From positions 1,329,361 to 1,393,360 of the forward strand of contig OZ240678.1 in NCBI GenBank assembly GCA_965198905.1: 64,000 bases of DNA, given 5' to 3'. Made by a program: the position numbers and the translations under genes. The stretch comes from Caulobacteraceae bacterium. Lineage in GTDB: Bacteria > Pseudomonadota > Alphaproteobacteria > Caulobacterales > Caulobacteraceae. Position 1 is the first letter of the stretch; every line of letters begins with the position of its first letter. Shown one piece after another: positions 2,331 to 63,400 of this stretch. Below the pieces are notes generated by a model. The model did not search any database and was not told the origin of the DNA. It was given only the letters and a program-made list of their open reading frames with translations.

Positions 2331-2366
2331 ATCGACGGCGGTTGGGTCTGAGCGTCCAAGGCTTGA

Positions 2367-2477
2367 TCCTCCCCCCCTGGGGGAGAGGAACCAGCGAAGC
2401 TGGTGGAGGGGGCTACGCCGCCGCTTCGCGCTGGCCCCCTCCGTCGGCTTCGCCAACAGCTCCCCCAGGGGGAGAGC
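2367..2477. repeat. Family-A composite palindromic repeat, copy A1 (between tssC and impD)
   Basis: A terminal hairpin cctccccccctgggggagagg, then aaccagcgaagctggtggaggggg, is mirrored by ccccctccgtcggcttcgccaacagctcccccagggggagag. Same architecture as the copies at 5934-6091 and 32780-32916. Confidence 0.8.
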
Positions 2478-2528
2478 ATTTCAGGGGCCCCGGCTTCGAC
2501 GCGATTCATGGCCAGCCGCCGTCGGCGA

Positions 2529-4031: not shown

Positions 4032-4036
4032 CGCGG

Positions 4037-4546
4037 CTACTCCTTCTCAGGCCCGGAGGCGTCAAGTTCCTTGCTCAGCTCATCCATCTGGCTCGGATTT
4101 TGGAGCACCTGTTCTAGCAAGGATTCAAGCTTTTCGGAATTGTCGGCCTTGTTGAGCAGGTCGCGCAGCTTGTTGCGGGTCTGCATGAGCTTGCGCAGGG
4201 GCTCCACCTGCTCGACCACGCGGCCGGGCTCGAAGTCCTCCATGGACTCGAACTTCAGCTGCACGGCCATTTCGCTGCCGTCGCCCTTCAGGGTGTTCTC
4301 GACGCGCATGTTAAGGCCGGGAGACATGCGCCGCATTACCTGGTCGAAGTTGTCCCGGTCGATCTGGATGAACTTACGCTCCTTGAGCGACTTCAGTTCC
4401 TCGGTCGGATCACCGGAGAAGTCGCCCATCACGCCGACGACGAAGGGCAGCTCCTTCACCTCCTGGGCGCCTTCGGTCTCCACGTCGTAGGTGATGTGGA
4501 CGCGGGGCTTGCGCACCCGCTTCAGCTTGTCGTGCACACTCTTCAT
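4037..4546 (-). CDS. tssB: Type VI secretion contractile sheath small subunit TssB (ImpB/VipA)
   Basis: [45 protein letters not shown] is the canonical TssB N-terminus. GAGGGCGAGTTG precedes the ATG at 4546. The maximal ORF extends to 4624, but that start lacks an SD and would lie about 13 nt from the predicted sigma-54 transcription start. Confidence 0.9.
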
Positions 4547-4648
4547 CAACTCGCCCTCGCTGACGTCGGGGTCCGGCACGCCGGGGTCCGTCATGCCGGA
4601 CCCCGGCGTGCCGGTTTGGCGCATGAACGCCGGAAGATAGCCTACCGC

Positions 4649-4664
4649 TGCAAGCCTACAGCCA
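4649..4664 (-). promoter_or_regulatory. Candidate sigma-54 (-24/-12) promoter upstream of tssB
   Basis: The minus strand reads TGGCTGTAGGCTTGCA, i.e. GG-N10-GC with the TGGC...TTGCA core of the consensus TGGCACG-N4-TTGCW. It lies in the lower-GC 88-bp tssA-tssB gap. rpoN is encoded in this window. Confidence 0.4.
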
Positions 4665-4712
4665 CGCTGTACAGAATCTTAGCCGTAAAAGTCACCGTAG
4701 GTGCGCTTCGCG

Positions 4713-5840: not shown

Positions 5841-5933
5841 GCGATGCGTCCCCCGTCCAAGCGAGGATTGAGGAGATACACGCCCAGGTCAATGCGCCTC
5901 GCGTCCGGATGATCGCTCCGGCTGGAGGCTGTC

Positions 5934-6091
5934 TTCTCCTCCCCTGCTCAGCGGGGGAGGAGAACCCTGCGCAGCATGGTGGAGGGTCGCCGCCGCTGCC
6001 GCATCAAGACTGGATACCGTAACCGCGGGAACGCCCCCTCCGCCACGACGCTACGCGCCGCGCCACCTCCCCCGCTGCGCAGGGGAGGAGA
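5934..6091. repeat. Family-A composite palindromic repeat, copy A2 (tssA / kinase divergent intergenic region)
   Basis: ttctcctcccctgctcagcgggggaggagaaccctgcgcagcatggtggaggg ... ccccctccgccacgacgctacgcgccgcgccacctcccccgctgcgcaggggaggagac. Arms are homologous to A1 and A3. Confidence 0.8.
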
Positions 6092-6160
6092 CTAGGCGCC
6101 GCCCTGGCCCGCCCTGCGCACCTCTGCTACTCAAATGCGAGTTGTCTGGGGAGACTCGTT

Positions 6161-45276: not shown

Positions 45277-46182
45277 TTAAAGGCGGGAGCCTTTCAACCG
45301 CGCGTAGACATCAGCCAAACCCCTCGCCAGAGGGATTTTAGGCTCGAACCCGATCTCGCGCCGAAGCATGTTTATATCCGCCACCAGCAACGGAGGCTCG
45401 TCGGGAGAAGTCGGCTTGGCGCCCAGCCGGACCAAGTCGTGACGTTGAGCGGCGTCAGCCAGGCGCTGCACCACGTCGCGGACGCTCACGGCGACACCTG
45501 AGCCGATGTTGAAGGGTCCGCAGAAGTCGTTCTCCAACGCGGCGACGAAGGCGCCCGCCACGTCGTCGACGTGGATGAAGTCGCGCCTCTGCCATCCTTC
45601 GCCCACTTCCGCCGGGCGTCCCTCGGCCAGCGCCCGGGCGACGTCGGCGACCAGCCTCCCGGCCGCCTCGTCCGGCCCGTAGAGCCAAAACACACGCCCC
45701 CACGCGACAGGAACCCCGAATTGGACGCCGGCGGCGCAGACCGCGCGCCTCACCGCGTCTTTAGCGGCGCCGTACAGCGTGGCCGGACCTATGGGAGAGT
45801 CCTCGGAAAGCCTCCCCTCGCCGGTCCAGTCGTATTCCGCCCCCGTGCCGGCCATCACCGCCCTACGGCCGCCGGCCTCGATAAAAGCGCTGCACAGCGA
45901 AAGGCTGGCGGCCGCCCAGTCCAGGTTGTCCGCCGCATGCCAGAACTTGCCGGGGGTGGCGTTCCAAGCCAGGTGCAAGAGATGCGTCGGACGCACCCTG
46001 GCGATCAGTTCACGCGCAGCGGCGGGCGCGAGAAGATCGACAGGCTCGAAACGGACCGAGCCAGGCGCCGCAGGATGGGGGCGACGGCTCGCCGCGACGA
46101 CCTCGAGGTCCGGCCGATCCGACAACCGGGAAACGACGCGGCGGCCGATAAAACCCGAAGCCCCGGTGACAAGGACCCTCAC
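45277..46182 (-). CDS. NAD-dependent epimerase/dehydratase family SDR (putative NDP-4-ketohexose reductase)
   Basis: 301 aa. VLVTGASGFIGRRV Rossmann motif, catalytic YGAAK. 4-nt overlap with the upstream epimerase gene. Confidence 0.8.
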   Translation of the reverse strand: MRVLVTGASGFIGRRVVSRLSDRPDLEVVAASRRPHPAAPGSVRFEPVDLLAPAAARELIARVRPTHLLHLAWNATPGKFWHAADNLDWAAASLSLCSAFIEAGGRRAVMAGTGAEYDWTGEGRLSEDSPIGPATLYGAAKDAVRRAVCAAGVQFGVPVAWGRVFWLYGPDEAAGRLVADVARALAEGRPAEVGEGWQRRDFIHVDDVAGAFVAALENDFCGPFNIGSGVAVSVRDVVQRLADAAQRHDLVRLGAKPTSPDEPPLLVADINMLRREIGFEPKIPLARGLADVYARLKGSRL

Positions 46183-46709
46183 GGCCGCCAGTCGGGATAG
46201 GTCGCGTCACGCTGTGACAGGAGGGGACCGGAAAGGGGCCACTCGATCGCGACGGCAGGATCGTTCCAGCGCAGGCCCTCGCCGTGGCCTGGCCGATAGG
46301 CGGGGGTGATCTGATAAAGCACGTCGCTGTCGTCTTCCAAGGTCTGGAAGCCGTGGGCGATCCCGGCGGGGACATAAAGCCCGACGCCATTCTCGGCGCT
46401 CAACGTGGCCGCCACCCACTTCAAATAGGTCGGTGATTGTCGCCTCAGATCGACCGCGACGTCGAACACCGCGCCCCTGACGCAGCGGACAAACTTCGCT
46501 TCCGCATATGGGTCGGGCTGGTAGTGGAGGCCCCGCAACGTAGCTCTATGGATGTTGCGCGACAGGCTGGACTGCTCGAACATCTCAGGAAGGCCGTGCG
46601 CGCGGAACTCGTCTGCGCAGAAGACCCTCGCGAAGTAACCGCGGTCGTCCGTGTTGGGGGTGAGCGACACTCTGTAAACCCCGGAGATGAAGGTCTCCTC
46701 AAAGGTCAT
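46179..46709 (-). CDS. RmlC-fold NDP-4-keto-6-deoxyhexose 3,5- (or 3- / 5-) epimerase family protein
   Basis: 176 aa. DDRGYFARVF, LRGLHYQ, EAKFVRCVRGAVFDVAVDLR, LYVPAGIAHGFQTLED. Confidence 0.85.
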   Translation of the reverse strand: MTFEETFISGVYRVSLTPNTDDRGYFARVFCADEFRAHGLPEMFEQSSLSRNIHRATLRGLHYQPDPYAEAKFVRCVRGAVFDVAVDLRRQSPTYLKWVAATLSAENGVGLYVPAGIAHGFQTLEDDSDVLYQITPAYRPGHGEGLRWNDPAVAIEWPLSGPLLSQRDATYPDWRP

Positions 46710-46830
46710 CTTATAGCGCCCTCAATCAGCCGTCTTGCGCCGCCGGGCGCGGAACGCCTGTCCACCGCCGCAGATCGCCGCGTGCAAAGCAAACGTGAGC
46801 GCTTCATCCGGACATCCAGGCCGCCGCTGC

Positions 46831-48066
46831 CTAATGTATTTCGACCATCGGTATGGGCGTGACGAATTTGCCGCCCCACTCTCGAACGGCTTGCATTTGA
46901 CTTATGATCTCGTCCTTGAGGTTCCAGGGAAGGATGAGCACGTAGTCCGGGCGACGTTCAAAGATGACTTCAGGCCGTTCGATCGGAATCCGCACGCCGG
47001 GGAGAAGCTTGCCCACCTTATGAGGGCTCCGATCCACGGTGAACTCCAGTAGATCGGGCTTCACGCCGCAGTAATTCAAGAGCGTGTTCCCCTTCGCCGG
47101 CGCGCCATAGCCGACCACGGATTTTCCTTGCCGGCGCGCCTCTATGAGAAAGTCCAGCAGATCGCACTTGGCCGAGATCACGGACTCGGAGAAGCGGCGA
47201 TAGGTGTCGAGGTCAGCCAGACCGGCCGCCTCCTCGCGCTGCAGCATCTCAGCGATCGCCGGCATGTCGGGTCGCGCCACATCTTCGGCGTGACAGACGT
47301 AGAGGCGTAGCGACCCTCCGTGGGTCGTAAGCTCTTCCATGTCATAAACCCGCATTCCATGCGCCGCGAAAATCTTCCTGGCGACCGTCAGCGACAGATA
47401 TGAAAAATGCTCGTGATAGATAGTATCGAACTGGCGGTGCTCGATCTGACTGAGTAGGTGGGGGAACTCTACGTTGGCCAGTCCGCCTGGCTTTAGGAGG
47501 ATGGGGTATCCGGAGACGAAATCATTGATGTCAGGAACATGAGCGAGGACATTGTTGGCGGCCATCAGGTCGGCTCGCACCCCCCGGTCCACCAGACGCT
47601 GCGCGGTTTCGCGGCCGAAGAAGGCGATCTCCGTCGCAACCCCTCGCTCCTCCATGGCCACGCGCGCAGTGTTGGCCGTCGGTTCGACGCCAAGGACCGG
47701 AACGCCCGCGTGCCTGAAATACTGTAGAAGATAGCCGTCGTTGGACGCGATCTCGACAACCATGGACGCCGGCCCGAGCGCCTCCTGTCGGATCATCGTC
47801 TTCGCATACGCCTCAGCATGGCGTAGCCAGGAGTCCGAATAGGAGGAGAAGTAGGCGTAATCATCCGAAAACATGCTTTCGGCCTTCTCGAAATCTATCA
47901 GCTGAACGAGAAAGCAGCTTTCGCAGACATAGGCATGGAGAGGATAGAACGGCTCCATGGCCTGGGCCCTCTCACGCGCGACATAATTATTCGAGATCGG
48001 CGACATCCCGAGATCAGCGAAGGTCACGTTCAACGGTGCGGAGCAGAAGCGACAATTGCGGCTCAT
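46831..48066 (-). CDS. NDP-hexose C-methyltransferase-type enzyme (Zn-ribbon + class I SAM MTase + C-methyltransferase C-terminal domain)
   Basis: 411 aa. N-terminal CRFCSAPL...YVCESCFLVQ (4-Cys Zn site), SAM motif VVEIASNDG, long C-terminal domain (VVGYGAPAKGNTLLNYCG...DRSPHKVGKLLPG..IPI). The architecture is as in TylC3-type sugar C-methyltransferases. ATGA overlap with rfbG. Confidence 0.75.
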   Translation of the reverse strand: MSRNCRFCSAPLNVTFADLGMSPISNNYVARERAQAMEPFYPLHAYVCESCFLVQLIDFEKAESMFSDDYAYFSSYSDSWLRHAEAYAKTMIRQEALGPASMVVEIASNDGYLLQYFRHAGVPVLGVEPTANTARVAMEERGVATEIAFFGRETAQRLVDRGVRADLMAANNVLAHVPDINDFVSGYPILLKPGGLANVEFPHLLSQIEHRQFDTIYHEHFSYLSLTVARKIFAAHGMRVYDMEELTTHGGSLRLYVCHAEDVARPDMPAIAEMLQREEAAGLADLDTYRRFSESVISAKCDLLDFLIEARRQGKSVVGYGAPAKGNTLLNYCGVKPDLLEFTVDRSPHKVGKLLPGVRIPIERPEVIFERRPDYVLILPWNLKDEIISQMQAVREWGGKFVTPIPMVEIH

Positions 48067-49163
48067 GCGAACGTCTTTCTGTCCATGGACTCACTCATGG
48101 TCTGGTACTGCTCGATCTGATTGATGGTGAGTTCCAGCGCAGGGCGGCCATCCCGCACCGCCTTGTACCAATCTACACTCCAGGTCAGGGCGTCTTCGAC
48201 CCCGAGCCTCGGTCGCCACCCCAGACCCAGCCTCGCCTTCGTCGCATCCACCCGCAGCAGCATCGCCTCCTTGGGCCAGGTGTCTCCATCCAGGCCCCAT
48301 GTCGCGCCCTCGCCCCAGAGACGCGCGATGCAGCCCACGATCCGCTCCACCGGCCAGGCTTCGGAGTCCGGCGGTCCGAAGTTCCACCCCTGCGCCATCT
48401 CTTGACCCCTTTCGTAGAGCGCTTGGGCCAGGAGCAGGTATCCGCAGACCGGCTCCAGCACGTGTTGCCACGGTCTCGTCGCCAGGGGATTGCGGATCTT
48501 GACCCGATCGCCGACGCCGAAAGCGCGTACGCAGTCCGGGATCAGGCGGTCGGCGGACCAGTCCCCCCCGCCGATGACGTTGCCCGCCCTCCCGGAGGCC
48601 AGAAACGGACCCTCCGGACGCTTGAAGAAGGATCGGCGGTAGGAGGCCGTGACCAGCTCGGCGCATCCCTTGCTGGCGCTGTACGGGTCAGAGCCGCCCA
48701 TCGGCTCGCTCTCGCGGTAGGCCCAGATCTGCTCGCTGTTCTCGTAGCACTTGTCGCTGGTGACGTTCACGATGGCGCGGGTCGAAGGACTGGTCCGCGC
48801 GGCGTCCAGCACGCGCACCAGACCCATGACGTTCGTCTCGAAGGTCTCCGCAGGCTCCTTATAGGAGGGATGAACCAACGCCTGCGCCGCCATGTGGATG
48901 ACGATCTGCGGCTGAGCCCGGGCGAAGGCCGCCGCCACGACAGCCGGATCGCGCACGTCGCCCAGGTCCTCGCCGGCCTCGTCGGCGCCGATCAGGTCGT
49001 GAAGGGCGGGTTGGGTCTGCGGCCTCAGCGACAGGCCGAACACCTCCGCCCCCAACCGCCGCAGCCATGTGGCGCACCAGGCGCCCTTGAACCCCGTGTG
49101 CCCGGTCAAGAGCACTCGCTTGCCGGACCAGAAGGCGGTGGAGGGCGTCACCATACCTTCCAC
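48063..49163 (-). CDS. rfbG: CDP-glucose 4,6-dehydratase
   Basis: 366 aa. [39 protein letters not shown]. Confidence 0.9.
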
Positions 49164-49915
49164 TTGGCCTGGCCGCTGTCCCAGAGTTCCTCCAGGTGAC
49201 GCTTGTCCCGGATCGTATCCATCGGCTGCCAGAATCCTTCGTGGCGGAATGCGGAGAGTTGGCCGTCACGCGCCAACCCCTCCAAGGGCTCGCGTTCCCA
49301 CGTCGTATGATCGCCCTCGATGCGGTCCAGCACCTCGGGTTCAAGCACGAAGAAGCCGCCGTTGATCCAGCTGCCGTCTCCCAGGGGCTTTTCCATGAAC
49401 CCCCGCACTTCACCGCTGCGCACATCCAGCGCACCGAAGCGCCCGGGAGGCCTCACCGCGGTCACGGTGGCCTGCCTTCCGGAGGCGGTGTGGAAAGCCA
49501 TTAGAGCGCCGATGTCAACGTCGCCGACGCCGTCTCCATAGGTCATGCAGAAGGCCTCATCGCCGATATGCGGCCTGACACGCTTGATGCGTCCGCCCGT
49601 CATCGTGTCGGCCCCAGTATCCACCAGGGTGATACGCCACTGCTCCGCCCGAGATTGATGCACCTCGATGGAATTGGCGCCTATATCCAGGGTGACGTCG
49701 GCCATATGCAGGAAGTAGTTCGCGAAATACTCCTTGATATGGTAGCCCTTGTACCCGAGACATATGATGAAGTCATTGACGCCGTACGCCGAGTATATCT
49801 TCATTACATGCCACAAGATCGGGCGGCCGCCGATCTCGACCATGGGCTTAGGTCGTGACGAGGTCTCCTCGGCCAGTCTGGTGCCCAGGCCGCCGGCTAA
49901 GATTACGAGTTTCAA
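49148..49915 (-). CDS. rfbF: Glucose-1-phosphate cytidylyltransferase
   Basis: TTG start at 49915 (AGAGAGG upstream) gives (M)[69 protein letters not shown], the canonical RfbF N-terminus. The longer ORF-track start is an over-extension. Confidence 0.92.
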
Positions 49916-50295
49916 CGCGAACCTCTCTGCGCCTGCACTAAGGCGCCTTTCCCTAGGACGCCCCCGTGAAGGCTGACAAGGGGCGACGACGAGCTTCGGC
50001 CGTAAAGGATCGAACCCCCGGGACACGGCGCCGCGGCGCCACCGCGTGAGAAAGGCCTCCCGATGCGACCTTGGAGCAAAGGCCGTCGCCAGACCGCCAA
50101 CATAACGGTCTTGCTTTTAGTCGCGATTGAGAGGAGCGTACACCGCTTGTCGCGGTGGGGTCCGCCACTCCACGCGATGAAGGGCGTCCACGGGTGGGCG
50201 CAACCCCAGGCGAGCAGGCGAAAGCCCTCACTGCGGCGAGGCCAAAATCGCAACGCGTCACTTTCAATCAGCCGAAATTGCCTTAAGGCGAAAGA

Positions 50296-51051
50296 ATGAT
50301 TTCCGGTCGCGCCCTTATCTCCACCTTGGCGCCTCTGAGCTTCCTGATCATCGCAGGTTGCGCCGCCCCGCCGCCGCACCGCTACTTCCAGGCCACGGCC
50401 AATCAGATCGGTCCCGAGCCGAACAGCTATGGGGAGGCGGTGGTGCCCTCCTGCGGCCTGGTGGCGGTTCAGGGCGACGACTTCGCCTACGGTCGCGCGC
50501 CAGGACGGTCCAGACGAACGATCAACGGCGCCACGCAAGGTCAGGCGGCCATCACCATAAGCCAGGCCTTGCGAAAGGCCGTCGATGGCGTGCGTGTCGA
50601 GAACCGGGGCTTTCCAGGCGATACGGTCGAGGCCAGCACGACGCGATGGTCGAGCCACCCTCCCGGTAACCTGCTGATCCTTGCGTTGGGCTATGGAGAC
50701 GCCGAGGCGCAGACGCCGATCGGCCACTTCGCAGAAGGCTTCGATGCGCTGGTGCGCGGCGCGCAGGCCAAGGGCGCCGCGGTCTTCGTCATCGTGCCGC
50801 CGCCGATCTCCGATCCGCTGAAGAACACCACCATCGAAGCCTACCGCAACCAGATGCGAGGCATCGCTCAAGCCGACGGTGCGGAGATGTTCGAGGCTTT
50901 CACCGCCGAGACAAGGATCAAGGCGAAGCCGAGCAGGACGTTGGCGCAGTCTTCGGCGGTCTATCAGGCCGTAGCCGCTGACATGGCGCCCTACATCAAG
51001 GCCGCCGCCGCTTCGAACAGCGGTGCAAGGCCCTTGCCGCACCATTGCTAA
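50296..51051 (+). CDS. SGNH/GDSL-hydrolase family lipoprotein
   Basis: Lipobox LIIAGC. ...VENRGFPGDT..., LLILALGYGDA, AAVFVIVPPP resemble SGNH blocks II-III. Lies between the two minus-strand glycan gene sets. Confidence 0.55.
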   Translation: MISGRALISTLAPLSFLIIAGCAAPPPHRYFQATANQIGPEPNSYGEAVVPSCGLVAVQGDDFAYGRAPGRSRRTINGATQGQAAITISQALRKAVDGVRVENRGFPGDTVEASTTRWSSHPPGNLLILALGYGDAEAQTPIGHFAEGFDALVRGAQAKGAAVFVIVPPPISDPLKNTTIEAYRNQMRGIAQADGAEMFEAFTAETRIKAKPSRTLAQSSAVYQAVAADMAPYIKAAAASNSGARPLPHHC

Positions 51052-51101
51052 ACGTCGCTCGCCAACCCGTGAGATACGCGGTGGACTAACGAGTAAGCAC
51101 T

Positions 51102-52451
51102 TCACCCAGGAACGTGCTGACGCGGCTTCCAAAGCTCCTCGACGTAGCCTTTCCGCACCCAGCACGGAAATCGATATTCTCGTTCAAATCTCTGACTTAA
51201 GACGTCTCCCACCACGACCTGGCGTGGACCATTAATATCTGCCGTCAGTGGCGCGGCCGCCTCTTGGTTTATACTTAGTATTGGGGAATTGATCTTTCGG
51301 CTATAATCACTGACCACTTTAGAACCCATTTCGGGAAAGGAGTCACAGTTCAAGACAAGGTCGTACCCCGAAGGAAAAGACCAAGCCGGCAAAAGATTAA
51401 TCTTGCCGTCGCCGTCAACCGTCACGCTAATATCTGGCAAGGAGCGACGCAGAACAAAATATTGAAGCAAGCAGATCAGTGGTAAATCAACGATCGTATA
51501 TTTACTAATCCCTAGTAAGACAGCGAAATATGCGGCCCTTCCTACCCCGCCCCCTACCTCGCATACGTGGCCTCGTGTAATTGACGCCACTCTCAAGGCA
51601 GCATAAAGACCTTGGATATCCCGGATATTTAATCCATCACATAGACCAAAGAGCCCATCAAAGATCAGTGGGGGTGTAATCGAGCCAAAACCAAGTTTCT
51701 CCTCAATCGCGCGCTTGACCGCATACGAGTCCTGATGAAGGGCGCTGCCAAACTCCCCCTGTTCCGGACACTCAACGTGATCTCCCAAATATTGCCCCAA
51801 AGCTAAAAGAGCATCATGGTACAAAGCAACATCCATAGATCGTCCAAGATCTGACGCCGCCATTAACGCTTCATAGGCTGGCCGCCCTTGATACATCCCG
51901 TCCGTTACCATTTCTCTGGGTAACGATACGAATACCGACGCTACACGTTCCACGTCGCCAGCCTCTAATGGGGCAATGATGTCCCTCTGCCTCGTCTCTA
52001 TGTGCATCGCCCAAATGCCCTCCAGATCAAGCACGCCCTCCCGGATGCGACGCCATATTTTGATTAATTCATTGGCGACTTCTAAGTCCTCCGGGCCCAC
52101 TTCTTTTCTTGTCAATATCCAAGGCGGACTCGGGTAGCCACGCAGCGGCGACACCATAAACATCTCTTTGTGTCGCAACTGCTCCGCCTCCGCTCCATTG
52201 GTGAGGACTGGCCCACCAACGATCTGCGCTGAAATCGAGCCGGTCAACCAGAGGTGCTCAGGCACAAGGAACTCGTAAGCGTGCCGGCCGTCGCCGTAAC
52301 CGGCATGCATCAAGTCTTCGCGAAACCTGTCTGCGAGCACCAAGCCGATCGGTTCGCCATTTAGCAGAATGCTGACCCGAACAGGCTCATCCCCGTCGAC
52401 CGCCCAACCGGCAACCGTTCGCGCGCGGATCGAGTCAATATATCCAATCAT
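51102..52451 (-). CDS. Class I SAM-methyltransferase-like protein (putative sugar O-methyltransferase) with N-terminal beta-rich domain
   Basis: 449 aa, low-GC gene. N-terminus GYIDSIRARTVAGWAVDGDEPVRVSILLNGEPIGLVLADRFREDLMHAGYGDGRHAYEF is a module often seen at the N-termini of polysaccharide-modifying enzymes. GxGxG-type motif VCEVGGGVGRAAYFAV...IVDLP. Confidence 0.5.
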   Translation of the reverse strand: MIGYIDSIRARTVAGWAVDGDEPVRVSILLNGEPIGLVLADRFREDLMHAGYGDGRHAYEFLVPEHLWLTGSISAQIVGGPVLTNGAEAEQLRHKEMFMVSPLRGYPSPPWILTRKEVGPEDLEVANELIKIWRRIREGVLDLEGIWAMHIETRQRDIIAPLEAGDVERVASVFVSLPREMVTDGMYQGRPAYEALMAASDLGRSMDVALYHDALLALGQYLGDHVECPEQGEFGSALHQDSYAVKRAIEEKLGFGSITPPLIFDGLFGLCDGLNIRDIQGLYAALRVASITRGHVCEVGGGVGRAAYFAVLLGISKYTIVDLPLICLLQYFVLRRSLPDISVTVDGDGKINLLPAWSFPSGYDLVLNCDSFPEMGSKVVSDYSRKINSPILSINQEAAAPLTADINGPRQVVVGDVLSQRFEREYRFPCWVRKGYVEELWKPRQHVPG

Positions 52452-52540: not shown

Positions 52541-54142
52541 TCAACCGATGGTTGGGAATGACCGTAAAGCGCTTTTCAAAATCGTCAAGATTCTCCACCA
52601 TGGGCGAGATTGAATATAATTCATGCGCTTGGCGAGCTCCAAACCTTTAGCTTGACTACCTTCCGCCTGCCGCCGTTCTCTTTCCAGGTTGGCGGTCAGC
52701 TCGTCCACAGTCGCCATCAGCTCGGCTTCGCGCTCAAGGGTGTGTCGGCGGGACTGCTCTAGAGCGTCCAAGAGAGCCGCGGCCTTCTCGCGCTCGTTAT
52801 CCAGGCTGGTGGCGTTATGCGCTTCCTGGATAGCGTTCGCGTTCCGCATTTTCACGCCCTCCACCTCGAGGCGGCTTATCTCTTGGCGCAACATCAGTGA
52901 GCGCTGCCGCTCGTCCTCTACAGTGACGTCTCTGTCTGCCAGAAGTTCGGAAAGCGCCTGACTTTCGTTTTCAGCGTTGACTTGCCGACGGAGCGCCTCA
53001 CCGACTTCGATGACTGATCGCGTCTTTTCGTCGCCCAGGGCCTTGGCGACCTCACCGACTTTCGCCTGCAGCATTTCGGACGCACCAGCCCACTCGGCGG
53101 CCGACTGGCTCGATGTGAGCCGCTCTACACGAAGTTGTTCTTCCAGAGCCTCAGCCCTGAGCGCTGTGGCATCATTAGCCGCTTGCAAGCTGGCGCTCCT
53201 GAGTCGCTCGGCGTCGGCTTCAACCCTGCAGAGCCCAAGTTGGGCCTGAGAGATCTGGTGATTTTGTATGATCGCTCCGAGGGACAGACGCATTTCCGCA
53301 AGGACACCTCCGACGACCTCCTCACAACGGGACAGTCGTCGTGAGACATTATCGAGCACTGAGCCGTCCGGCGTCTCACCCTTGGCGCTTTGGGTGAACC
53401 AGGCGTATGTTTCGGTCACCATCTTTCGCAGCTCACCGCGAAGCGGCAGAGGCCCGGCCGCCGTGTGATGGCGGAGGTCACCCTTCAGGGCGCGCTCCAC
53501 CTCGAGATCGGACGCTCGGGTACGCCGAGGGAGCGCCTCGCCAAGTGTCGTCTCGATCTCATCCAGGACGCTATGAGGGTCTTCCAGCAAACCCTCGTAG
53601 GTGACAAAGAGTCGGCGGCTACCTCGCGATTTGCGCTCCGCCGCGAGCATGTTCGTCAGCCAGATCAGCAAGCCCCTCTCGTTCGAGAACCCGTCCCTAC
53701 GGGCCAGTGAGGCGGCCACCTCGGCGGGGTTTCGAACCATCAGGACAAAGGCGCATTCGTACCCCGCCCCTTCGAGCGCCGTTCGCCAAAATCCGGCGAG
53801 GATCGAGATGCGAGGATCCTTCAGGACGATGCGGGGCGCACCGTCGAACTCCGATCCCAGGAGTGTGACCGCTCTCGCCATAACGGCGGAGCCTGAACGG
53901 GACAGCAGCGGCGCCTCGTCGGGCGCGAACATGTCATGCCAACTCGCATCCCGCATCGCCAGTAACTCGTCATTCAAGTTGACGATATTTACCGACTCCC
54001 AAAAGCCCTCCGGGTTGTCAGTCTGGGGAGGCAGGACGGTGCAAGGCAGACTGAACCCACTGAGCGCCAGAGTGCGCGCCATGACGGACGTTCCACTCCG
54101 ATGAGCACCGACAACCACCAGAGCCAACTTCGTGTTTGACAT
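52541..54142 (-). CDS. Sulfotransferase-family domain fused to ~220-aa coiled coil and C-terminal amphipathic helix
   Basis: 533 aa. N-terminus LVVVGAHRSGTSVMARTL (5'-PSB-like P-loop), RIVLKDPRISIL, VLMVRNPAEVAASL. Residues ~290-505 are heptad-rich (LRAEALEEQLRVERL..., ERQRSLMLRQEISRLEVEGVKMRN..., ELMATVDELTANLERERRQAE). Tail RPWWRILTILKSALRSF. Confidence 0.65.
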   Translation of the reverse strand: MSNTKLALVVVGAHRSGTSVMARTLALSGFSLPCTVLPPQTDNPEGFWESVNIVNLNDELLAMRDASWHDMFAPDEAPLLSRSGSAVMARAVTLLGSEFDGAPRIVLKDPRISILAGFWRTALEGAGYECAFVLMVRNPAEVAASLARRDGFSNERGLLIWLTNMLAAERKSRGSRRLFVTYEGLLEDPHSVLDEIETTLGEALPRRTRASDLEVERALKGDLRHHTAAGPLPLRGELRKMVTETYAWFTQSAKGETPDGSVLDNVSRRLSRCEEVVGGVLAEMRLSLGAIIQNHQISQAQLGLCRVEADAERLRSASLQAANDATALRAEALEEQLRVERLTSSQSAAEWAGASEMLQAKVGEVAKALGDEKTRSVIEVGEALRRQVNAENESQALSELLADRDVTVEDERQRSLMLRQEISRLEVEGVKMRNANAIQEAHNATSLDNEREKAAALLDALEQSRRHTLEREAELMATVDELTANLERERRQAEGSQAKGLELAKRMNYIQSRPWWRILTILKSALRSFPTIG

Positions 54143-54202: not shown

Positions 54203-56833
54203 CTACGCTGTGTAGTCCATCAGCATAGGGCGCGGGTACAAGCTGATTTCATTAGTCGACGAATTCTGGCTCAGGTTTCGGTTGTACATGGGGTCTGATC
54301 CAATCACGTCGCCCCACTTCTGATTAAAGTCGATGAGCTCTTGCGGCGGCCCCGGTTCACGGCTGACGGACTCGTAATGGTATAGGTTCGCGAAAGGCGT
54401 ATATACCAGACGACCTCTCTGCCTAAGTCGAAGACAGAAATCGACATCGTTATAGTTCAGCCGGAAACGGGTGTCGAAACCGCCTACTCCCTCATAGTCG
54501 GCTTTCCGGCACATGAAACAGGCTCCAGTAAGAGCCGAATAGTTACGCACGAGCAGACCCGATCCAGCTAGCCCCGCCGTGTCAGCGGGAAGGTCGTAGT
54601 AGACGTGCCCGGGTCCCTGTCCCAGCAGGAGCACCCCAGCGTGCTGTATTGTTCCACTGGGAAAGAACAGCTTAGCCCCGACCCCGGCAACCTCGGGATC
54701 GTCAAGCCACATTAGCATCTGTTCCAACCAGTCGCCGCTGATGACAGTCATGTCGTCATTCAGAAGCAAGACAACTTCCGCACTCGCACGTGCGACACCA
54801 AGGTTCATCTTTTCAGCTATGTTAAAGACCGGCCTGTCATAATCGACGTAGACTATGTCATATGTCCTCAGCGCCGCTTCAAGCTCCGGCTCCATGTCGC
54901 CATTGTGTACGACGACGATCTCGAAGGCCCGGTGCGTCGACTTGTAAAAGATCGACCGAACCAAATCCAAGAGGTACCACCTCGCAATATCTTTATTGAG
55001 CCGGCGTGCGGCCGATGGGATTACGATACTGACCTTCTGGTTCGGATCGACGTTCGGAAGGACTCGGTGACTGCCTGCGAAGGGACCGCGAACAACACGA
55101 CCTTTGCGCCCGGCGTCGTCGCGGTGAGCCTGGACCGCACGGCGTGCGGCGAGTTCGGCGGAGGGTTTGGCGTCCGCGCCCGCAGCTGTGGACGTGGGGA
55201 GGATGCGCCAATGATAGAGCACATCGGGGACATGTACGATCGCGCGAGCCTTTGTTGAGACCCGAAAAGCGAGGTCATAGTCTTGGGCCAAATCGAATTC
55301 CGGACGAAAGCCGCCGATCTCCCGCACCAGAGCGGTACGATAAACCCCGAGATGGCAGGTGTACATACACCCCAGCATGAACTCGGGGGACCAATCAGGC
55401 TTGAAAAGGGGCCCGAACCGCACGCCCCCTTCTGTTATCTTGTCTTCGTCAGAATAAAGGAAATCGGCTTCCGGCGTTTGATTGATGGCGTGCGCCATAG
55501 CGAACAGAGCGTGGGGAGCGAGTTCGTCATCGTGATCCAGTAAGGCGATGAATTCTCCGTCGGCAAATGATAAGGCCTTATTGGTCGCCCGGGCGATCCC
55601 GCCGTTGGCTTCGGATCTCTGAATTCGAATGCGATCATCTTTTGCCTGCAAGCCCGTGAGATATGTCGCCACCTCAGGCTTGGTCGAGCCGTCATCTACG
55701 ATGCAAAGTTGCCAGTCGTCATAGGTCTGAGCCAGAACGGATTGAACCGCGAGTTCGAGGTAGTGCAAGTCCGAATTATAGGTAGGCATCAGCACCGAAA
55801 ACTTGGGGCGGACTCCAAGTTCGCGGCCAAGTTTAATCAATTGGGAGCGTAAAGGTTGATCAATCTGACGATGCGCAATCCAGGCCGCATAGCGATCGCC
55901 TTGAACTCGACGCGGATTTGCCAGCGCTTGAGTGAGATGGCGCGCCCGGGTCGGATGAAAAAACTCGGCTATCAACGGTGCCGTCCGCCAAGAATGATCA
56001 TCGCTTTGCAGCAATGCACGCCATTGACCAAACATCTGCACTTTTGCTTCTTCTGGACTTATTGACCAGATATCGAAGTCCTCGAACTTAAATGAGCCAG
56101 GTTGGTTTGTCGGGTCGATTCGAACAAACCTGACATCTTCAAAGCTATATAATATCGTATCTAATTTTAGAAAGATGGAAGCCGCATCTAAGGTCCAGCT
56201 GTTCGCATCTGAGATACCGTCGTTAGTCGCAAGGAAAATCTGGGTGTACCTGGAATGGCCATATGGATCGACAGCGGCGGGAAACGTGACTTGGTACTTG
56301 ACTCTTAGATATCCAGCCTCGGCGGACCGTTCCACGATCATGTAGGGATCGGGCCCTAGCGAATTGTACTGATCTGGAATTTGCGTACTGGCCAACTCAT
56401 TTATAAGTCTAATCTTGTTTGTGTGGCTTTTGGATGGAGGCGAAACTACCTCGCTGTCGGCCGCCGTATCGAGCAGTTCCGAAGCCAGGTCTATGTCCGT
56501 CAGCAATATCCGTGCTAGGGCTTCACGCGAGGCGGCTTCGGACAGACGGGCGCGGCAGCTTTCGCTGATGGGTAACGTCGTCGCCCAGTCGACAAAAGCC
56601 CGCCAAGACTGATCGGTCGACACCGGCTCCGGAGCGCGATCAAGGCTGGCCTTATATTCGAATGACGATATAAATTTTCTGATTGTACTGACGATGGATC
56701 CATCCACCTGATTATGGATAACATCCTCATTCTCGGGAGCTCGTCCGAGGAATATATGGTAGCAAGCGCGCACGTCTTCGCTGGTGGCGCCCATAGCCCC
56801 AGACCGAGGTTGCAATAAGCCGGAGCTATCCAT
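54203..56833 (-). CDS. Large multidomain glycosyltransferase (DUF4214-like N-terminus + two GT2 domains)
   Basis: 876 aa. N-terminus CYHIFLGRAPENEDVIHNQVDG...IRKFISSFEY. First GT2 domain FSVLMPTYNSDLHYLELAVQSVLAQTYDDWQLCIVDDGS...LLDHDDEL (DxD). Second GT2 domain VSIVIPS...LLLNDDM... Confidence 0.8.
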   Translation of the reverse strand: MDSSGLLQPRSGAMGATSEDVRACYHIFLGRAPENEDVIHNQVDGSIVSTIRKFISSFEYKASLDRAPEPVSTDQSWRAFVDWATTLPISESCRARLSEAASREALARILLTDIDLASELLDTAADSEVVSPPSKSHTNKIRLINELASTQIPDQYNSLGPDPYMIVERSAEAGYLRVKYQVTFPAAVDPYGHSRYTQIFLATNDGISDANSWTLDAASIFLKLDTILYSFEDVRFVRIDPTNQPGSFKFEDFDIWSISPEEAKVQMFGQWRALLQSDDHSWRTAPLIAEFFHPTRARHLTQALANPRRVQGDRYAAWIAHRQIDQPLRSQLIKLGRELGVRPKFSVLMPTYNSDLHYLELAVQSVLAQTYDDWQLCIVDDGSTKPEVATYLTGLQAKDDRIRIQRSEANGGIARATNKALSFADGEFIALLDHDDELAPHALFAMAHAINQTPEADFLYSDEDKITEGGVRFGPLFKPDWSPEFMLGCMYTCHLGVYRTALVREIGGFRPEFDLAQDYDLAFRVSTKARAIVHVPDVLYHWRILPTSTAAGADAKPSAELAARRAVQAHRDDAGRKGRVVRGPFAGSHRVLPNVDPNQKVSIVIPSAARRLNKDIARWYLLDLVRSIFYKSTHRAFEIVVVHNGDMEPELEAALRTYDIVYVDYDRPVFNIAEKMNLGVARASAEVVLLLNDDMTVISGDWLEQMLMWLDDPEVAGVGAKLFFPSGTIQHAGVLLLGQGPGHVYYDLPADTAGLAGSGLLVRNYSALTGACFMCRKADYEGVGGFDTRFRLNYNDVDFCLRLRQRGRLVYTPFANLYHYESVSREPGPPQELIDFNQKWGDVIGSDPMYNRNLSQNSSTNEISLYPRPMLMDYTA

Positions 56834-57482: not shown

Positions 57483-60400
57483 TTAGTCGCCGGTAAGATT
57501 GGACAGGGTGTTCTCCACCATCAGGTAGGGATAGCCCCCATTGGTGTCCGGGTTGATCGCCCAGATGTTGGTGAAGTCAAAGCCTGCGTACGAAGCCTGC
57601 ATCATCGCCTGTGCGTCGGTGAGCGGGGTCAACCCCAGGATCGAGCCCGTGCCGACCCCAGGAACGGCCGTCCCGTTGATGCCGGTGTCGTAGTAGGTCG
57701 AGGTCAACGTCCCGGCGTTGTTGCCCACGAAGGCTCCGACGTTGGTTCCCCCCGTGTTGTCAGTCATAGCCACCGAGCCGATCGTATAAGAGGTGGAGAT
57801 AGCCCCAGTGTTGTAGCCGGCGAAGCCGCCGATGTTCATCATGCCGGAGCTGTTTTGCACCACACCCGTCGAGTAGCTGTTGGTCACCGTGCCGGCGTTC
57901 CAGCCGATCAGGCCACCGAAGTCGGCGCCCGCCGTATAGTCCCCGTTCAGGTAGACGGGGCCCGTCGCCACGACCTGGTCGACCGTCGCCATGGTGGCGG
58001 CCCCGACCGTGGGCGCCCCGCTGTAGCCGATCGCGCCGCCGACATAATCCGCACCGTAGACGTCGAAGTCGCTCTCAGCTTGCGATACGGCGCCGAAGTT
58101 ACGTCCGACGACGCCACCGATCGAGTCCATGCCAAGGACCTCACCGCCGCCTGTGGCGGACACGAGGCTGACCGTTCCGTAGTTCTTGCCCACGATCCCG
58201 CCCACGGAGTTGCTGTCGTTAGAGGTGATGGACGAGCCTATGATCGCGGAGCTTGTAACGAGGCCGTACGGGTCGTTGAACCCGACGAGGCCGCCGACGT
58301 CCGCTTCGCTGCCGCTACCCGTCACCCCGAACCCGGAAATCGACAGGTCCGCGGCAGTCGCGTTGCTGACGACCGCGGGTGTTGTGGAGCCGGAGCCTTG
58401 CATCACGCCGTTGTAGCCGACGATGCCGCCGACATACTCGTCGCCGACAACGTTGCCGCCATCCACCGTCGCGAGGTTCACCGTGCCAAAGTTCTTACCG
58501 ACGGCGCCGCCGACGGCGGCCGACCCTAATACCTCGTTTCCGATCGTCTTGACGCTGCTGACCAGCCCCGCGTTCTTGCCGACGACGCCGCCGACTGCGA
58601 AGCCGCCATAGGATGATTCCCCAGTCCCCGCCGTGTTTATCGAACCGAGGACGGGGTTTCCAAAGCTCGAAACGTTGGTGATCTGGCCGTAGGGATCGTT
58701 GAAGCCGACCACGCCACCGACATCTGCCTCGGCGTTGGTCGTCGCCGTGCCTTCCACGGTCGTGCGGTAAACAGTGTATTCGAAGTCGCTGTTCGACACG
58801 GTCGCAGGCGTCGTCGATCCGGACCCCTCTGGCACGCCGTTATAACCCACCAGGCCGCCGACGTATTCGCCGCCCGCCACCGTACTGTATTCAGTGCTGT
58901 CATAGGCCACCGTGCCGAAGTTCTTGCCGATCAGGCCGCCCACGGCGGCGGCGCCGGTGATGTTGGAGTCTTCGACGTAGCTGAACTCGACACCGCCGTA
59001 GTTCTTACCCACCAGGCCGCCGACCGCATAGCCCGCCCCGGTCACCGTCCCTCCGCCCTGAGAGTTGATCACGAGGCCGCTCGACGCGTTGTAGCCGACC
59101 ACGCCGCCGACATCATTTTCGACGTTGGCGCCCGTGTCGGTGACCGTTCCCTCAAACACTGCGTTCGAGAGCGTCGCCGTCGCCGTCGAGGTCCCGGACT
59201 GCGGAGCGCCGTTATAGCCGACCACACCGCCGACATAGGTGCCGGACCCCGTGACGTCGGAGTTGGAGGTCAGGGAGAAGGCGTTGCCGAAGTTCTTGCC
59301 GATGACGCCGCCGACGCCCCCCGAGCCGCTGACCGTAGAGTCGTAGACCGCGACGTCCAGCAGCGTACCGGAGTTCTTTCCGATCAGCCCGCCGACGGCG
59401 TTGAAGCCCATGACGTCGGCGCTCTCAAGCGTCAGATCCTCGACGGAACCCGCCGCGCCAAGGTTGGCGATCAGGCCGACCGAGGTGGAGGTCGGGCGCC
59501 CGATAGTGAGGTCGGAGATGCTGTAACCATTCCCCTGCAGCGAGCCGGTGAAGGGTGTCGCGTCTGAGCCGAGCGGCACGAAGCCGTAATTGCCCGCCGC
59601 GTCTGCAGTGGTGGAGTTCCGCCACACGTCGCCTGGAGCGTTGCCGGTGGCGGAGGCGTCGATGGCGCCGGCCAGGGTGTAGCTGGCGGTCGGATCGAGC
59701 GCGATCAGCTGCAGCTGGTGCGCGTTGTTGATGGTGGTGGAGTATTCAGCCCGCAGCAGCGGCCGGGTCGAGCCGTCGATGATGTACCAGGTGTTGGAGA
59801 AGTCGAACGCGCCATAGGTCGCCTGGGCGTAGGGGTCGTTGCTGGAGCCGCCGACGCGCGTGGCGCCGACCGTTCCGGTGTTCGAGCCCACCGCCGTCCC
59901 GGTCCCCGTGGACGACTGGTCGAAGAAGAGGTTGGACAGGGCGCCCGCATTGGTTCCTGCCAAGGCGCCGACGACGCCGTCGATGCTCCGCGGGTCGGTC
60001 GTGGCGGAGCCATCGGTCATCAGGGGCCCTGAAGCATAGGCCCGGGTGATCGCGCCCATGGCGCCGTTCACGCCGACCAGTCCGCCGACCGTGTAGCCGG
60101 CGTCGTTCCCGTTGGAGACGCTGGTGGTCCCGACCGAGTAGACGTCTGAGACGGCGCCGGCGTTCTCGCCGATCAGGCCGCCCATGACGACCATGTTGTT
60201 GGCGTTGACGTCGTTATCCGAGACATAGGCCCCCGAATAGGACGTATTGATCGCGCCGGCGTTGTAGCCGACCAGGCCGCCGATCGGGCCCACAACGTCG
60301 CTATTGTCATAGTTCTGCAGATAGACTTCGCCGTCGGACCAGGAGCCGGAGAGGGTTCCGGCCGCGTCGTTGCGACCGAGCACTCCACCCACGTCCATCT

Positions 60401-63400
60401 GCCCCACGACCTCGTTGTAGGCGCTGGAGTTGCTCACCGTCGGCGCGTAGCCGCTGGTGGCGCCGGTCGGCGTGGTGTTCCAGCCGACGACGCCGCCCAC
60501 ATAGTCGCGACCGGAGACGTAGCCGCTGTAGGCGATCGAGTTGGAGACCGACCCGAAGTTCTTGCCGACGATGCCGCCGACCGCGTCCTGGCCGTAAACC
60601 TTCACATTGCCATTGAGATTGACGCTGAGAGCTTTCACGGCATCGATATTATCGTCGCCATTGAAGGAGCCGTACTGGCTTGCGGTCACCGTGCCGTAGT
60701 TCTTACCGACGATGCCGCCGACCGCATTTGCGCTGGTGTCGACGTAGGTCGCCGCCAAGGCGCCGGTCACCAAGCCGCCGGCCGCGTTCAGGCCGACCAC
60801 GCCGCCGAAGCTCGAGGCAGCGCCCGCAGCGGCTTCAGACTGAACGGTGGTGGCCTCGACCTGGACCGTGCCTGTCGTGCCGGAGTTGTAGCCCGCCACG
60901 CCGCCGACGTTGGACGCGGAGAAAGCGATGATGTTCGTACCGGACACCGTATCGACGCCAGTGGCGCCGGTCAGCGAACCAGCGTTGAAGCCGACCAAGC
61001 CACCGATGTCGACCGCCGAGTCTCCAAAGGCGAATACTGCCGTATTGATGGCGCTGACGTTGCTGATTGTGGATCCGACATCGTTGTAGCCCACCGCGCC
61101 ACCGAGATAGTTCCCGCTGCCCACAACTGTACCCGTCACGGTAGAGTCGCTGACCACGGCGGTGGACGCTGCGGTGGAGCCGCTCGGGACGGTGTTCCAG
61201 CCCACCAGGCCGCCGACATAATCAGCCCCGGTAACCTTGCCCGAGATGCCGGCCACCCCGGCGGACGCATAGGCGAGCGTGCCGAAGTTCTTGCCGATCA
61301 CGCCGCCGACCGCGTCGTTGCCGGCCACCGTATCGTTGGAGAGGATGACGTCGGTCACCAGGCCGGAGTTCTTGCCCGCCACCGTGCCGACGGCGTTGAA
61401 GCCGGTGATGTTCGCCCCGGTCAGGATGACGTTCTCCACCGTGCCCGCCGCGCCCACATTGCCGAACAGGCCGATGGACGTCGCCGTCGGGGTGTTGATG
61501 GTGAGGTTGGAGATGGTGTGGTTCGCCCCGGAGGTCGCGTCCGCCCCATTAAACGTGCCGGTGTAGGACGTCGCGTCCGTGCCGATCGGGGAGAAGCCCT
61601 TGGTGCTCCACATGTCGGAAGCGTTGGCGCCGTTGGTCGGCGTCGCGTCGATGTCGGCGCCCAGGGTGTAGCTGAAGCCCGGGTTCAACGCCGCCAGCTG
61701 AAGCTGGTGCAGGTTGATGATCACGCCGTTGTCGGCGACAGCTTCCGACTGCAGGAAGGGCCGGGTCGAACCTTCGAAGATCACGAAGCCGCCCGTGCCG
61801 AAGTTCAGATTGGGATAGCTGGACATGGCGTAGGGGCTGAGGGCGCCGCCGCCGGTATCGATGGCCGAGGCCTCATCCGTACCCATCTCGGAACCCGCCG
61901 TGAGGGTCTGGCCGGTGGTCGTCTGGTCGAAGTAGACGCTGTTGGCGATCGCGCCGTAGTTGATCCCGGTCACCCCGCCCATGGTCGAGCCGTTGGCCGC
62001 AGAGACCAGGCCCGTCGCGTAGGCCTGGCTCACCGCCGCATCGGCGTCGTTATAGCCGATGAGGCCGCCCAGATAGTCGTCCGTCGAATTCGCGGCCGTC
62101 ACCGAACCGAGCGAATAGGCGTAGGAGACTGCGCCGTCGTTGTAGCCGACGAGACCCCCGAGGTTGGCCCCATCCGCCCCGCCCCCGGCATAGGTGTCGG
62201 TCACCGCGCCTGTGGCGTAGGCCTGGCCGATGACGGCGTTGGTGTAGTTGTAGCCTACGAGGCCGCCTGCATACGAGAAGCCGCCGTCGATGGTGACCGA
62301 GCCGGTCGCGAAAGACGCCTGCGCGCCGCCGATCGTCCCGACATTGTATCCGACCAAGCCGCCGACGAAGGCGTTGGCCGCGCCGGTTACGGAAACCGCT
62401 CCAGCCGCAGAAGAACTGCTGATCATGCCGTTGTTTTCGCCGATGAGGCCGCCGACGAGATCCGCACCTTGCGCCGTGACAGCCCCGGTCGCGACTGTGT
62501 TGGCGACCGTGGCGTTGCTGCCGTTATAGCCAACCAACCCGCCGATGCTGTTGCGGTCCGAGCCATCCGCCGTGCCCGTTTCGCCCACCGCGCCGGCAGC
62601 GCTGGATCCAGAGATCGCGCCGTCGTTATAGCCGACGAGGCCACCGGCGTAGTTGGACATTCCGCTCATTGCGGCGTCGACGCTGACCGTGCCGCTCGCG
62701 CTGGACCCTGCGATCGTTCCGCCCATGACGTTGAAGCCGACCAGGCCGCCGGCGATCGTCTGGCCGCCGGTTCCGCTCACCGCCGCCGAGGACGTGGACC
62801 CCGTGATCGCGCCGGAATTGTAGCCGGCAAGGCCGCCTTCGTAGCTGAAGCTGCCTGTCACGATCCCGGTTGCGCCATAGCTGGCGTTGTAGCCTGCGAT
62901 CGGCGCGACGGTGACGCCGTCGAGGGTTCCGGTGGTCGTGTTATAGCCGACCGCGCCACCGAGATAGTCCGGCGAGCCGCTGGTCGGGTTGGCTGCGGCC
63001 TCCACGACCTGCGCGCCGACATTGGAGTTGCTGATGGCGCCGGCGTTATAGCCCACCAGGCCGCCGATGGCCTCGCCCGCGCTGCCGGCGCCCATCACCT
63101 GGCCGCCGCCACCGGACGAGCCTTGGATGATCGAGCCGACGTCGTTGTAGCCGACCAGCCCGCCGATATAGTTGCCGCTGCCGCTGACCCGGGTCGATGC
63201 GCCGGTATAGCTGCCGTCCTCGACGATGGCGGTGGAAGGCGCGGTGGACCCCGACGGCGTGGTGTTCCAGCCGACGACCCCGCCGACATAGTTGACGCCG
63301 CTCACCGTCGAGCTGCTGACGATGAAGTCGTCGTCGACGGTGGCGAAGTTCTTGCCGACCACGCCGCCGGTCGCGTCCTCACCGACGATATGGCTGGCCT

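Follow-up and report, generated by a model that had tools for sequence, protein, structure and literature searches.

A single gene on the minus strand of a 64-kb stretch of Caulobacteraceae bacterium DNA (contig OZ240678.1; "the window" below means this whole analysed stretch of 64,000 nucleotides) encodes a sulfotransferase joined to a long helical stalk. The open reading frame (ORF) begins with ATG and, by the ORF list and its translation, specifies 533 amino acids. Three parts follow one another in the protein: residues 1-260 form a sulfotransferase domain of the kind that uses 3'-phosphoadenosine 5'-phosphosulfate (PAPS), residues 261-511 form the stalk, and a basic amphipathic helix is predicted at residues 514-529. 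The features of this gene, the target of the analysis, are as follows.

52541..54142, minus strand: gene for the sulfotransferase, coiled-coil stalk and amphipathic tail (ORF list, translation)
53363..54142, minus strand: predicted PAPS-dependent sulfotransferase domain, residues 1-260 (Pfam PF13469, AlphaFold2, Foldseek, profile search)
54086..54109, minus strand: 5'-phosphosulfate-binding loop GAHRSGTS, residues 12-19 (residue conservation)
53708..53737, minus strand: 3'-phosphate-binding motif VRNPAEVAAS, residues 136-145 (conservation, SULT7A1 alignment)
52610..53362, minus strand: proline-free helical stalk of coiled-coil type, residues 261-511, with a predicted hinge at 367-375 (AlphaFold2, heptad score)
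52541..52609, minus strand: residues 512-533 and the stop codon, predicted basic amphipathic helix (hydrophobic moment, charge, AlphaFold2)

The 533-residue frame and the three-part layout had both been proposed in a first-pass annotation made from the sequence; both are real, the coding strand is minus, and the layout defines a large family. The start codon chosen there is also the right one. A public protein identical to the target (P0001) is annotated with 513 residues, begun at Met21, and is too short: this start removes the conserved G-x-H-R-S-G-T-S loop (window 54083-54142, minus strand), which homologues retain at their N-termini, so the longer form is correct. Several database homologues seem to carry the same shortened start, their residue 1 aligning with query residue 21.

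The N-terminal domain has a PAPS sulfotransferase fold

Residues 1-260 are a PAPS-type sulfotransferase fold that carries both PAPS-binding motifs and is under selection. Pfam assigns the protein a single domain, Sulfotransfer_3 (PF13469), over residues 8-203 with 31.5 bits against a gathering cut-off of 27, and an NCBIfam search of the protein returned no match. Modelled by AlphaFold2 from an alignment of 83 sequences, residues 1-290 reached a predicted local distance difference test score (pLDDT) of 94.5 and a predicted template modelling score (pTM) of 0.92. When this model was compared with the PDB by Foldseek, the 18 best matches were all sulfotransferases with PAPS or its desulfated product PAP bound (E 1.4e-6 to 1e-3, probability 1.0, template modelling score about 0.5). 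Human TPST2 and TPST1 (with PAP), a tick TPST and the sulfotransferase domain of olefin synthase (OLS) are among the matches, together with the CurM sulfotransferase domain, SULT1D1, SULT2A1, SULT7A1, the 3-O-sulfotransferase 3-OST and a bacterial sulfotransferase. A domain-only profile run against PDB sequences likewise returned mostly sulfotransferases, all of its best matches included, at marginal E-values; phmmer with the whole protein against the same sequences gave no match. A profile that included the coil columns matched myosin, tropomyosin, SMC and crescentin, a likeness of composition and heptads rather than homology, and was not used as evidence.

The sulfotransferase motifs named in the first-pass annotation (GAHRSGTS, KDPR and VRNP) stand where it placed them, at G12-A-H-R15-S-G17-T-S19, K108-D-P-R111 and V136-R137-N-P139...S145, and its assignment of the domain to the sulfotransferases agrees with the Foldseek comparison, both the 5'-phosphosulfate-binding motif GxxRSGT[ST] and the 3'-phosphate-binding motif R-x-P-x5-S being present. 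HMMER aligns VRNPAEVAAS of the target with the classical 3'-phosphate-binding motif of mouse SULT7A1, VRNPKDTAVS. In a 16-sequence alignment reaching down to 30% identity, G12, R15, G17, E49, K108, P110, R111, R137, P139 and S145 are invariant; within the 5'-phosphosulfate-binding loop, H14, S16 and S19 are nearly so. Across 16-83 homologues the motif residues remain invariant or nearly invariant, a pattern suggesting that the domain would transfer sulfate from PAPS.

A long helical stalk ends in an amphipathic helix

Prolines are absent between residues 262 and 511, where Ala (16%), Glu (14%), Leu (12%) and Arg (10%) are abundant. A full-length AlphaFold2 model (pLDDT 85.6) places helices at 261-368, 376-511 and 514-528, leaving a low-confidence break between the two stalk helices at 367-375. 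The region had been described as uninterrupted, heptad-like sequence. The first term is nearly right. The second is modest for the target, whose register-tolerant heptad score of z = 2.15 was equalled by 12 of 500 shuffles, but strong for the family, in which z exceeded 2 in all 30 members tested with a median of 5.2. Global Fourier analysis of the target's hydrophobicity showed no 3.5-residue peak. Calculated as a fully extended parallel coiled coil, the stalk would span ~33-37 nm.

For the tail, PWWRILTILKSALRSF, the hydrophobic moment is 0.60, a value matched by 1.2% of shuffles, and the net charge is +3. With its separate helix in the structural model, these values fit the basic amphipathic tail that had been read from the sequence. 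Such a helix may hold the target at the membrane, at the polymerase, or at both.

The gene lies in a glycan locus

The genes nearest the target point to glycan assembly. They include enzymes of glycosyltransferase family 2 (GT2) and of cytidine diphosphate (CDP)-hexose synthesis, arranged as follows.

54203..56833, minus strand: 876-aa protein with an N-terminal ~340 residues outside any Pfam domain and two GT2 modules, a candidate polymerase partner (Pfam GT2 twice)
51102..52451, minus strand: 449-aa protein, possible sugar O-methyltransferase (TIGR04371, E 1.7e-10, below the cut-off, residues 295-388)
50296-51051, plus strand: GDSL-like gene, convergent, between the 449-aa gene and the CDP-hexose operon
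45277..50026, minus strand: CDP-hexose operon (TIGR02623, TIGR02622, PF08421/PF08484, PF00908, PF01370)
57483-63944, minus strand: 2,153-aa GLUG-repeat protein beside the glycan island (Pfam)

The gene of the GT2-GT2 protein ends 60 bp upstream of the sulfotransferase-coil gene, confirming the adjacent two-domain GT2 enzyme noted in the first pass. On the other side, 89 bp downstream, lies the gene of the 449-aa protein, which carries a GGGVGR motif and matched no family in a Pfam search; it could be a second end-modifying enzyme. Its N-terminal ~70 residues (GWA..V.V..NG..) resemble a separate small module.

The CDP-hexose operon encodes a glucose-1-phosphate cytidylyltransferase, a CDP-glucose 4,6-dehydratase, a nucleoside diphosphate (NDP)-hexose C-methyltransferase, an RmlC-like 3,5-epimerase and a reductase, with TIGR02623 and TIGR02622 scoring 447 and 454 bits, both above their cut-offs. 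It probably supplies sugar for the same glycan, and since the pathway is complete and includes a C-methyltransferase, a rare branched (C-methyl) 6-deoxyhexose would be expected in the glycan made here. GC content is 56-65% at 46-58 kb, compared with 66-74% across most other window sequence, which suggests that the glycan locus was acquired horizontally.

A large family exists in split and polymerase-fused forms

A word-indexed homologue search gave 141 matches. Residues 1-290, searched exhaustively with HMMER, matched 17,917 cluster representatives at E<=1e-3, of which 2,784 remained at E<=1e-30; among the best matches the sulfotransferase domain is usually N-terminal. Of 139 new best matches, 8 are shorter than 350 aa, 102 measure 350-1,000 aa and 29 reach 1,000 aa or more. 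The family comprises thousands of 50%-identity clusters and spans Caulobacterales, Xanthomonadales, purple sulfur bacteria, cyanobacteria and others. Throughout, the catalytic domain is conserved, while the coil segment is poorly conserved, proline-free, heptad-patterned and 92-460 residues long.

Three homologues have near-perfect tandem repeats within the coil: the repeat measures 42 aa (six heptads) in P0008, 45 aa in P0025 and 18 aa in P0031. These repeats are recent changes in stalk length and represent a simple route to an altered rod length. They fit a rod of tuned length and, because they would disrupt a hairpin, provide mild evidence for an extended one.

Genomic context was compared in 84 loci, of which 80 came from a scan of one genome per species, using a profile from 15 closer sequences, and four were metagenomic. 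The best match to the target among GTDB species representatives is 46% identical. Most of the 80 scanned loci belong to Caulobacterales and Brevundimonas; Hyphomonas, Sphingomicrobium, Thiocapsa and other Chromatiales, Pseudoxanthomonas, Roseomonas and relatives, cyanobacteria and further groups make up the others. Four architectures were distinguished.

27 of 84 loci: stand-alone sulfotransferase
8 of 84 loci: sulfotransferase with another N-terminal region before it
25 of 84 loci: sulfotransferase plus coil, under 1,000 aa (split form, as in the target)
24 of 84 loci: giant proteins of 1,084-2,267 aa (fused form)

In six giants analysed with Pfam, a sulfotransferase is followed, after a gap of 400-650 residues, by GT2 and GT1 and/or WbsX modules. 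The coil closes with a short basic motif, S-x-[ST]-W-[KRW]-x-[TLA]...R, which reads, for example, STSWKLTALPRRLIS in relatives and SRPWWRILTILKSALRSF in the target. Its core, S-x-[ST]-W-[KRW], is kept at this position in both split and fused homologues, and in the giants it appears as S-x-S-W-R about 110-150 residues ahead of the GT2 module. Other family members end in a 'DPLxHY' repeat in place of the motif.

One further arrangement was seen in a Hyphomonas metagenome-assembled genome (L013:9911-15005), where a 464-aa sulfotransferase ORF overlaps out of frame a 1,324-aa GT2-WbsX ORF; the pair is probably one fused protein broken by a frameshift, and not a genuine split form.

Relatives with a coil occur beside glycan exporters

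The presence of wzm and wzt, which encode the permease and ATPase of an ATP-binding cassette (ABC) glycan exporter, was counted in the fetched flanks by BLAST and membrane-span counts; since flanks are often incomplete, the counts are lower bounds. The pair lies near at least 17 of 49 coil-bearing members, as against at most 1 of 35 coil-less ones (Fisher p = 3e-4). By form, it was found near 13 of the 24 fused proteins and 4 of the 25 split ones. Pfam confirms pairs of an ABC-2 permease and a Wzt-like ATPase in L013, L017 and L041.

The clearest case is the cultured strain Pseudoxanthomonas wuyuanensis CGMCC 1.10978 (L041), in which a split homologue sits in a standard wzm-wzt O-antigen locus. 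The gene order is a Cys/Met-metabolism gene (metB), wzm, wzt (402 aa), the sulfotransferase-coil gene (622 aa), a three-module glycosyltransferase (1,180 aa), a methyltransferase (416 aa) and a GT2-GT2 protein (930 aa). Of all proteins in the 84 loci, the last of these comes closest to the window's 876-aa enzyme, with 37% identity over 755 aa (E 8e-128). The Wzt has a 150-aa C-terminal extension without a domain assignment. The nearest full-length relative of the target, P0002 (44% identity), has as neighbours, amid insertion sequence elements, a GT2-GT2 gene with 40% identity and a piece of the same cytidylyltransferase with 72%.

Other transporter arrangements were observed among the homologous loci. 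In a member of the Thiotrichales (L037:7596-14701), a Wzt with the carbohydrate-binding module Wzt_C, a stand-alone 323-aa sulfotransferase and a 1,582-aa sulfotransferase-coil-GT2-GT1 protein lie together, placing two sulfotransferases inside one ABC-dependent glycan locus. The Wzt-like ATPases at L017:7887-9185 and L020:10411-11709 carry a C-terminal DUF29 and no known carbohydrate-binding module; each could be a true fusion or two merged ORFs.

A putative sulfate-adding chain terminator and ruler

The target is very probably a glycan sulfotransferase tethered by its coil to polymerase machinery, because its architecture, the fused forms, the association of wzm/wzt specifically with coil-bearing members and the local operon all agree. 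A more particular role, that of a cytoplasmic, membrane-associated sulfotransferase serving as chain terminator and ruler of a polysaccharide, is drawn by analogy, since every characterised protein with a terminator-coil-polymerase layout is a chain terminator (PMC11231755), and we judge the chances of this role to be evenly balanced. Extended to the family as glycan chain terminators with a coiled-coil ruler, adding a sulfate cap in split or polymerase-fused form, the proposal is more tentative, falling a little short of an even chance.

In the proposed mechanism, the C-terminal helix (514-529) would anchor the protein to the inner face of the membrane and/or to the GT2-GT2 polymerase encoded upstream. 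The stalk of ~250 residues, reaching up to ~33-37 nm, would keep the N-terminal PAPS-dependent sulfotransferase distant from the membrane, so that a lipid-linked chain growing there would meet the catalytic site only when long enough. Sulfate placed on the non-reducing end would then stop extension, and a transporter encoded beyond the window would export the capped chain. Oligomerisation of the protein, its docking at membrane or polymerase and its acceptor are inferred, as are sulfation at the chain end instead of within the chain and the action of the stalk as a ruler.

Comparison with characterised systems shows both what the proposal borrows and where it departs. The class of coiled-coil glycan chain terminators in ABC-transporter-dependent assembly holds WbdD, WbbB, ORF7 of K. 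pneumoniae O4 and ORF6 of K. pneumoniae O7. WbdD of E. coli O9a/O8 and K. pneumoniae O3/O5 resembles the predicted layout of the target in having a capping enzyme, a coiled coil and a C-terminal amphipathic region in that order (PMC11231755), on a polypeptide separate from the multi-module polymerase of the same locus. Unlike the target, WbdD carries methyltransferase and kinase domains, which share neither sequence nor fold kinship with a PAPS sulfotransferase; its cap is methyl or methylphosphate, where the target's would be sulfate, and it has a wzm/wzt system, which the target's window lacks. Membership of the WbdD family by descent was rejected, Pfam and NCBIfam showing no WbdD catalytic domains in the target, which is an architectural analogue. 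The WbdD-like reading of the first-pass annotation accordingly stands in part: the layout, the fused relatives and the wzm/wzt association favour it, the window's lack of wzm/wzt does not, and the evidence is comparative.

The fused layout of 24 relatives, at least 13 of them beside wzm/wzt, is that of WbbB (Raoultella terrigena/K. pneumoniae O12) and K. pneumoniae O7 ORF6, in which the N-terminal module terminates the chain and the coil is the ruler (PMC11231755). [quoted passage not shown] The known PAPS enzymes (TPST1/2, the CurM and olefin-synthase sulfotransferase domains, SULTs and heparan 3-OST) share the target's fold, its 5'-phosphosulfate-binding loop and the RNPxxxxxS 3'-phosphate-binding motif, at 12-23% identity; none has a coiled-coil stalk, and the target's acceptor would be a bacterial lipid-linked glycan.

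Precedents for the chemistry and for the locus type come from elsewhere. In mammals, terminal sulfation by the HNK-1 sulfotransferase limits matriglycan extension. This eukaryotic Golgi enzyme belongs to an unrelated pathway and has no coiled-coil ruler, and it serves as a chemical precedent for a sulfate cap acting where a glycan grows; one account describes it as 3-O-sulfating the terminal glucuronate on matriglycan, a growing repeat polymer (PMC7673472). In Aeromonas salmonicida A450, a sulfotransferase-like gene, ORF19 (216 aa), lies between wzt and wbbB in the ABC-transporter-dependent O-antigen cluster, beside a polymerase of the coiled-coil WbbB type (PMC4483657). It has no assigned function, and the published O-antigen structure shows no sulfate (PMC4483657). 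ORF19 is short and coil-less, unlike the target, and the likeness is one of domain and locus type. The first-pass annotation had supposed a sulfate-capping coiled-coil ruler to be uncharacterised, and no report of such a terminator was found in the literature searched. A summary of the 2019 chain-termination census names methyl, methylphosphate, Kdo and pyruvate only (PMC10629545); the census itself, by Mann, Kimber and Whitfield, may list sulfotransferase candidates.

Evidence against the proposal and rival explanations

Several observations weigh against a terminator and ruler. The 64-kb window contains no ABC-2 permease, no glycan-type ABC ATPase and no wzm/wzt, and neither an initiating phosphoglycosyltransferase nor an O-antigen ligase was found in it. 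Nor was a gene for PAPS synthesis seen in the window or the 84 loci, where a search for an APS (adenosine 5'-phosphosulfate) kinase motif found none, a weak negative. Of the 25 split relatives, which share the target's form, 21 have no wzm/wzt inside 10 kb. The Wzt_C module was recognised in a single homologous locus (L037), and a permissive Pfam search of four further Wzt proteins found no binding module. Several fused relatives adjoin a short Wzt (248-261 aa) without such a module, so export there cannot couple to the cap as it does in E. coli O9a. The target's own heptad signal is weak, and a stalk folded back at the hinge predicted at 367-375 could have its reach halved or its end separation abolished. 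Finally, the real terminator could be the neighbouring putative methyltransferase.

One rival is a decorating enzyme within the same membrane-associated polymerase complex, one that sulfates internal residues or a fraction of the chains, its coil only oligomerising and docking to glycosyltransferases, with chain length set otherwise, for example by the methyltransferase-like neighbour or by the ratio of polymerase to transporter. The scarcity of Wzt binding modules beside many fused relatives and the putative sugar O-methyltransferase gene directly downstream of the target both speak for it, as does the second, stand-alone sulfotransferase beside the fused one in L037. Moreover, bacterial sulfated polysaccharides so far carry sulfate within the repeat unit (e.g. 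PMC11766843), and the pyruvate end group of K. pneumoniae O1 diversifies a glycan without controlling its length (PMC11231755). Yet a variable stalk, which would put tens of nanometres between polymerase modules and catalytic domain, is hard to reconcile with an enzyme acting on each repeat unit during synthesis. The family's coil-less members, in turn, have no wzm/wzt link, which argues that the coil tracks a particular assembly mode and not sulfation generally. Decoration is the main rival, though less probable than termination.

A protein or peptide sulfotransferase tied to type I secretion, in the manner of RaxST, would act instead on a tyrosine or a glycan of a secreted protein of the RTX (repeats-in-toxin) or adhesin type, possibly the neighbouring 2,153-aa GLUG-repeat protein, whose giant gene borders the cluster. 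The top structural matches are indeed tyrosylprotein sulfotransferases, but these are expected of any Pfam Sulfotransfer_3 member. Some relatives have suggestive neighbours: P0003 (64% identity, L085) comes directly after TolC-like, ABC exporter and AprE/HlyD-like genes; P0025 (L004) is flanked on one side by an RTX/cadherin giant with a TolC-like gene and on the other by an RTX protease; and L010 has upstream an ABC ATPase of fused type, with five predicted membrane spans, and an unannotated gene of 447 aa. A dedicated exporter (ABC protein plus membrane-fusion protein) is adjacent in few relatives only, however, and was not found in the window. In Caulobacter crescentus, the S-layer type I secretion genes adjoin O-antigen genes, which could explain such co-location in a largely Caulobacterales family. 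The target's operon partners are a two-module glycosyltransferase and a sugar-methyltransferase-like protein near a nucleotide-sugar pathway, and most homologous loci hold multi-module glycosyltransferases, fused to the sulfotransferase in 24, so a type I secretion role is improbable. Less probable still, and barely credible, is an inactive or repurposed domain that binds a nucleotide or glycan without transferring sulfate, leaving the protein as a polymerase scaffold. The missing APS kinase motif would agree with it, but even very distant members keep R15, S16, G17, K108, R137, S145 and the conserved E49 unchanged or almost unchanged, and such invariance of cofactor residues argues for selection for catalysis.

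Implications of a sulfate cap

Capping is among the few well-understood mechanisms by which bacteria size their surface glycans, and the proven caps are few, namely methyl, methylphosphate and Kdo; pyruvate is a candidate. If the target is a terminator that adds sulfate, then sulfate would be a new stop signal in bacterial glycan polymerisation, and some Wzt binding modules would be readers of sulfate caps, forming a new specificity class. Structural work can easily lose or overlook a lone terminal sulfate, which could explain why sulfotransferase genes in O-antigen loci such as that of Aeromonas remain without an assignment (PMC4483657).

The family also offers a set of natural experiments, since it comes fused and split, with coil lengths from 92 to 460 residues and, in some members, recent repeats inside the coil. 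The complete locus of the cultured P. wuyuanensis strain makes the hypothesis directly testable, and end-sulfated glycans of defined length would be useful for glycoengineering.

Other genes in the window

Between the 449-aa gene and the CDP-hexose operon, a minus-strand ORF at 49912-51165 was rejected as a gene, because the overlapping plus-strand GDSL-like ORF has the higher GC content at third codon positions (GC3) and Pfam support. The remaining window carries genes for type VI secretion, kdp, rpoN and fatty-acid or valine catabolism. The type VI locus (783-8038) has a duplicated sheath subunit, with tandem TssC/VipB paralogues at 783-2456 and 2529-4031, together with TssB, a TssA-like gene and, at 6161-8038, a Ser/Thr kinase with a HAMP domain.

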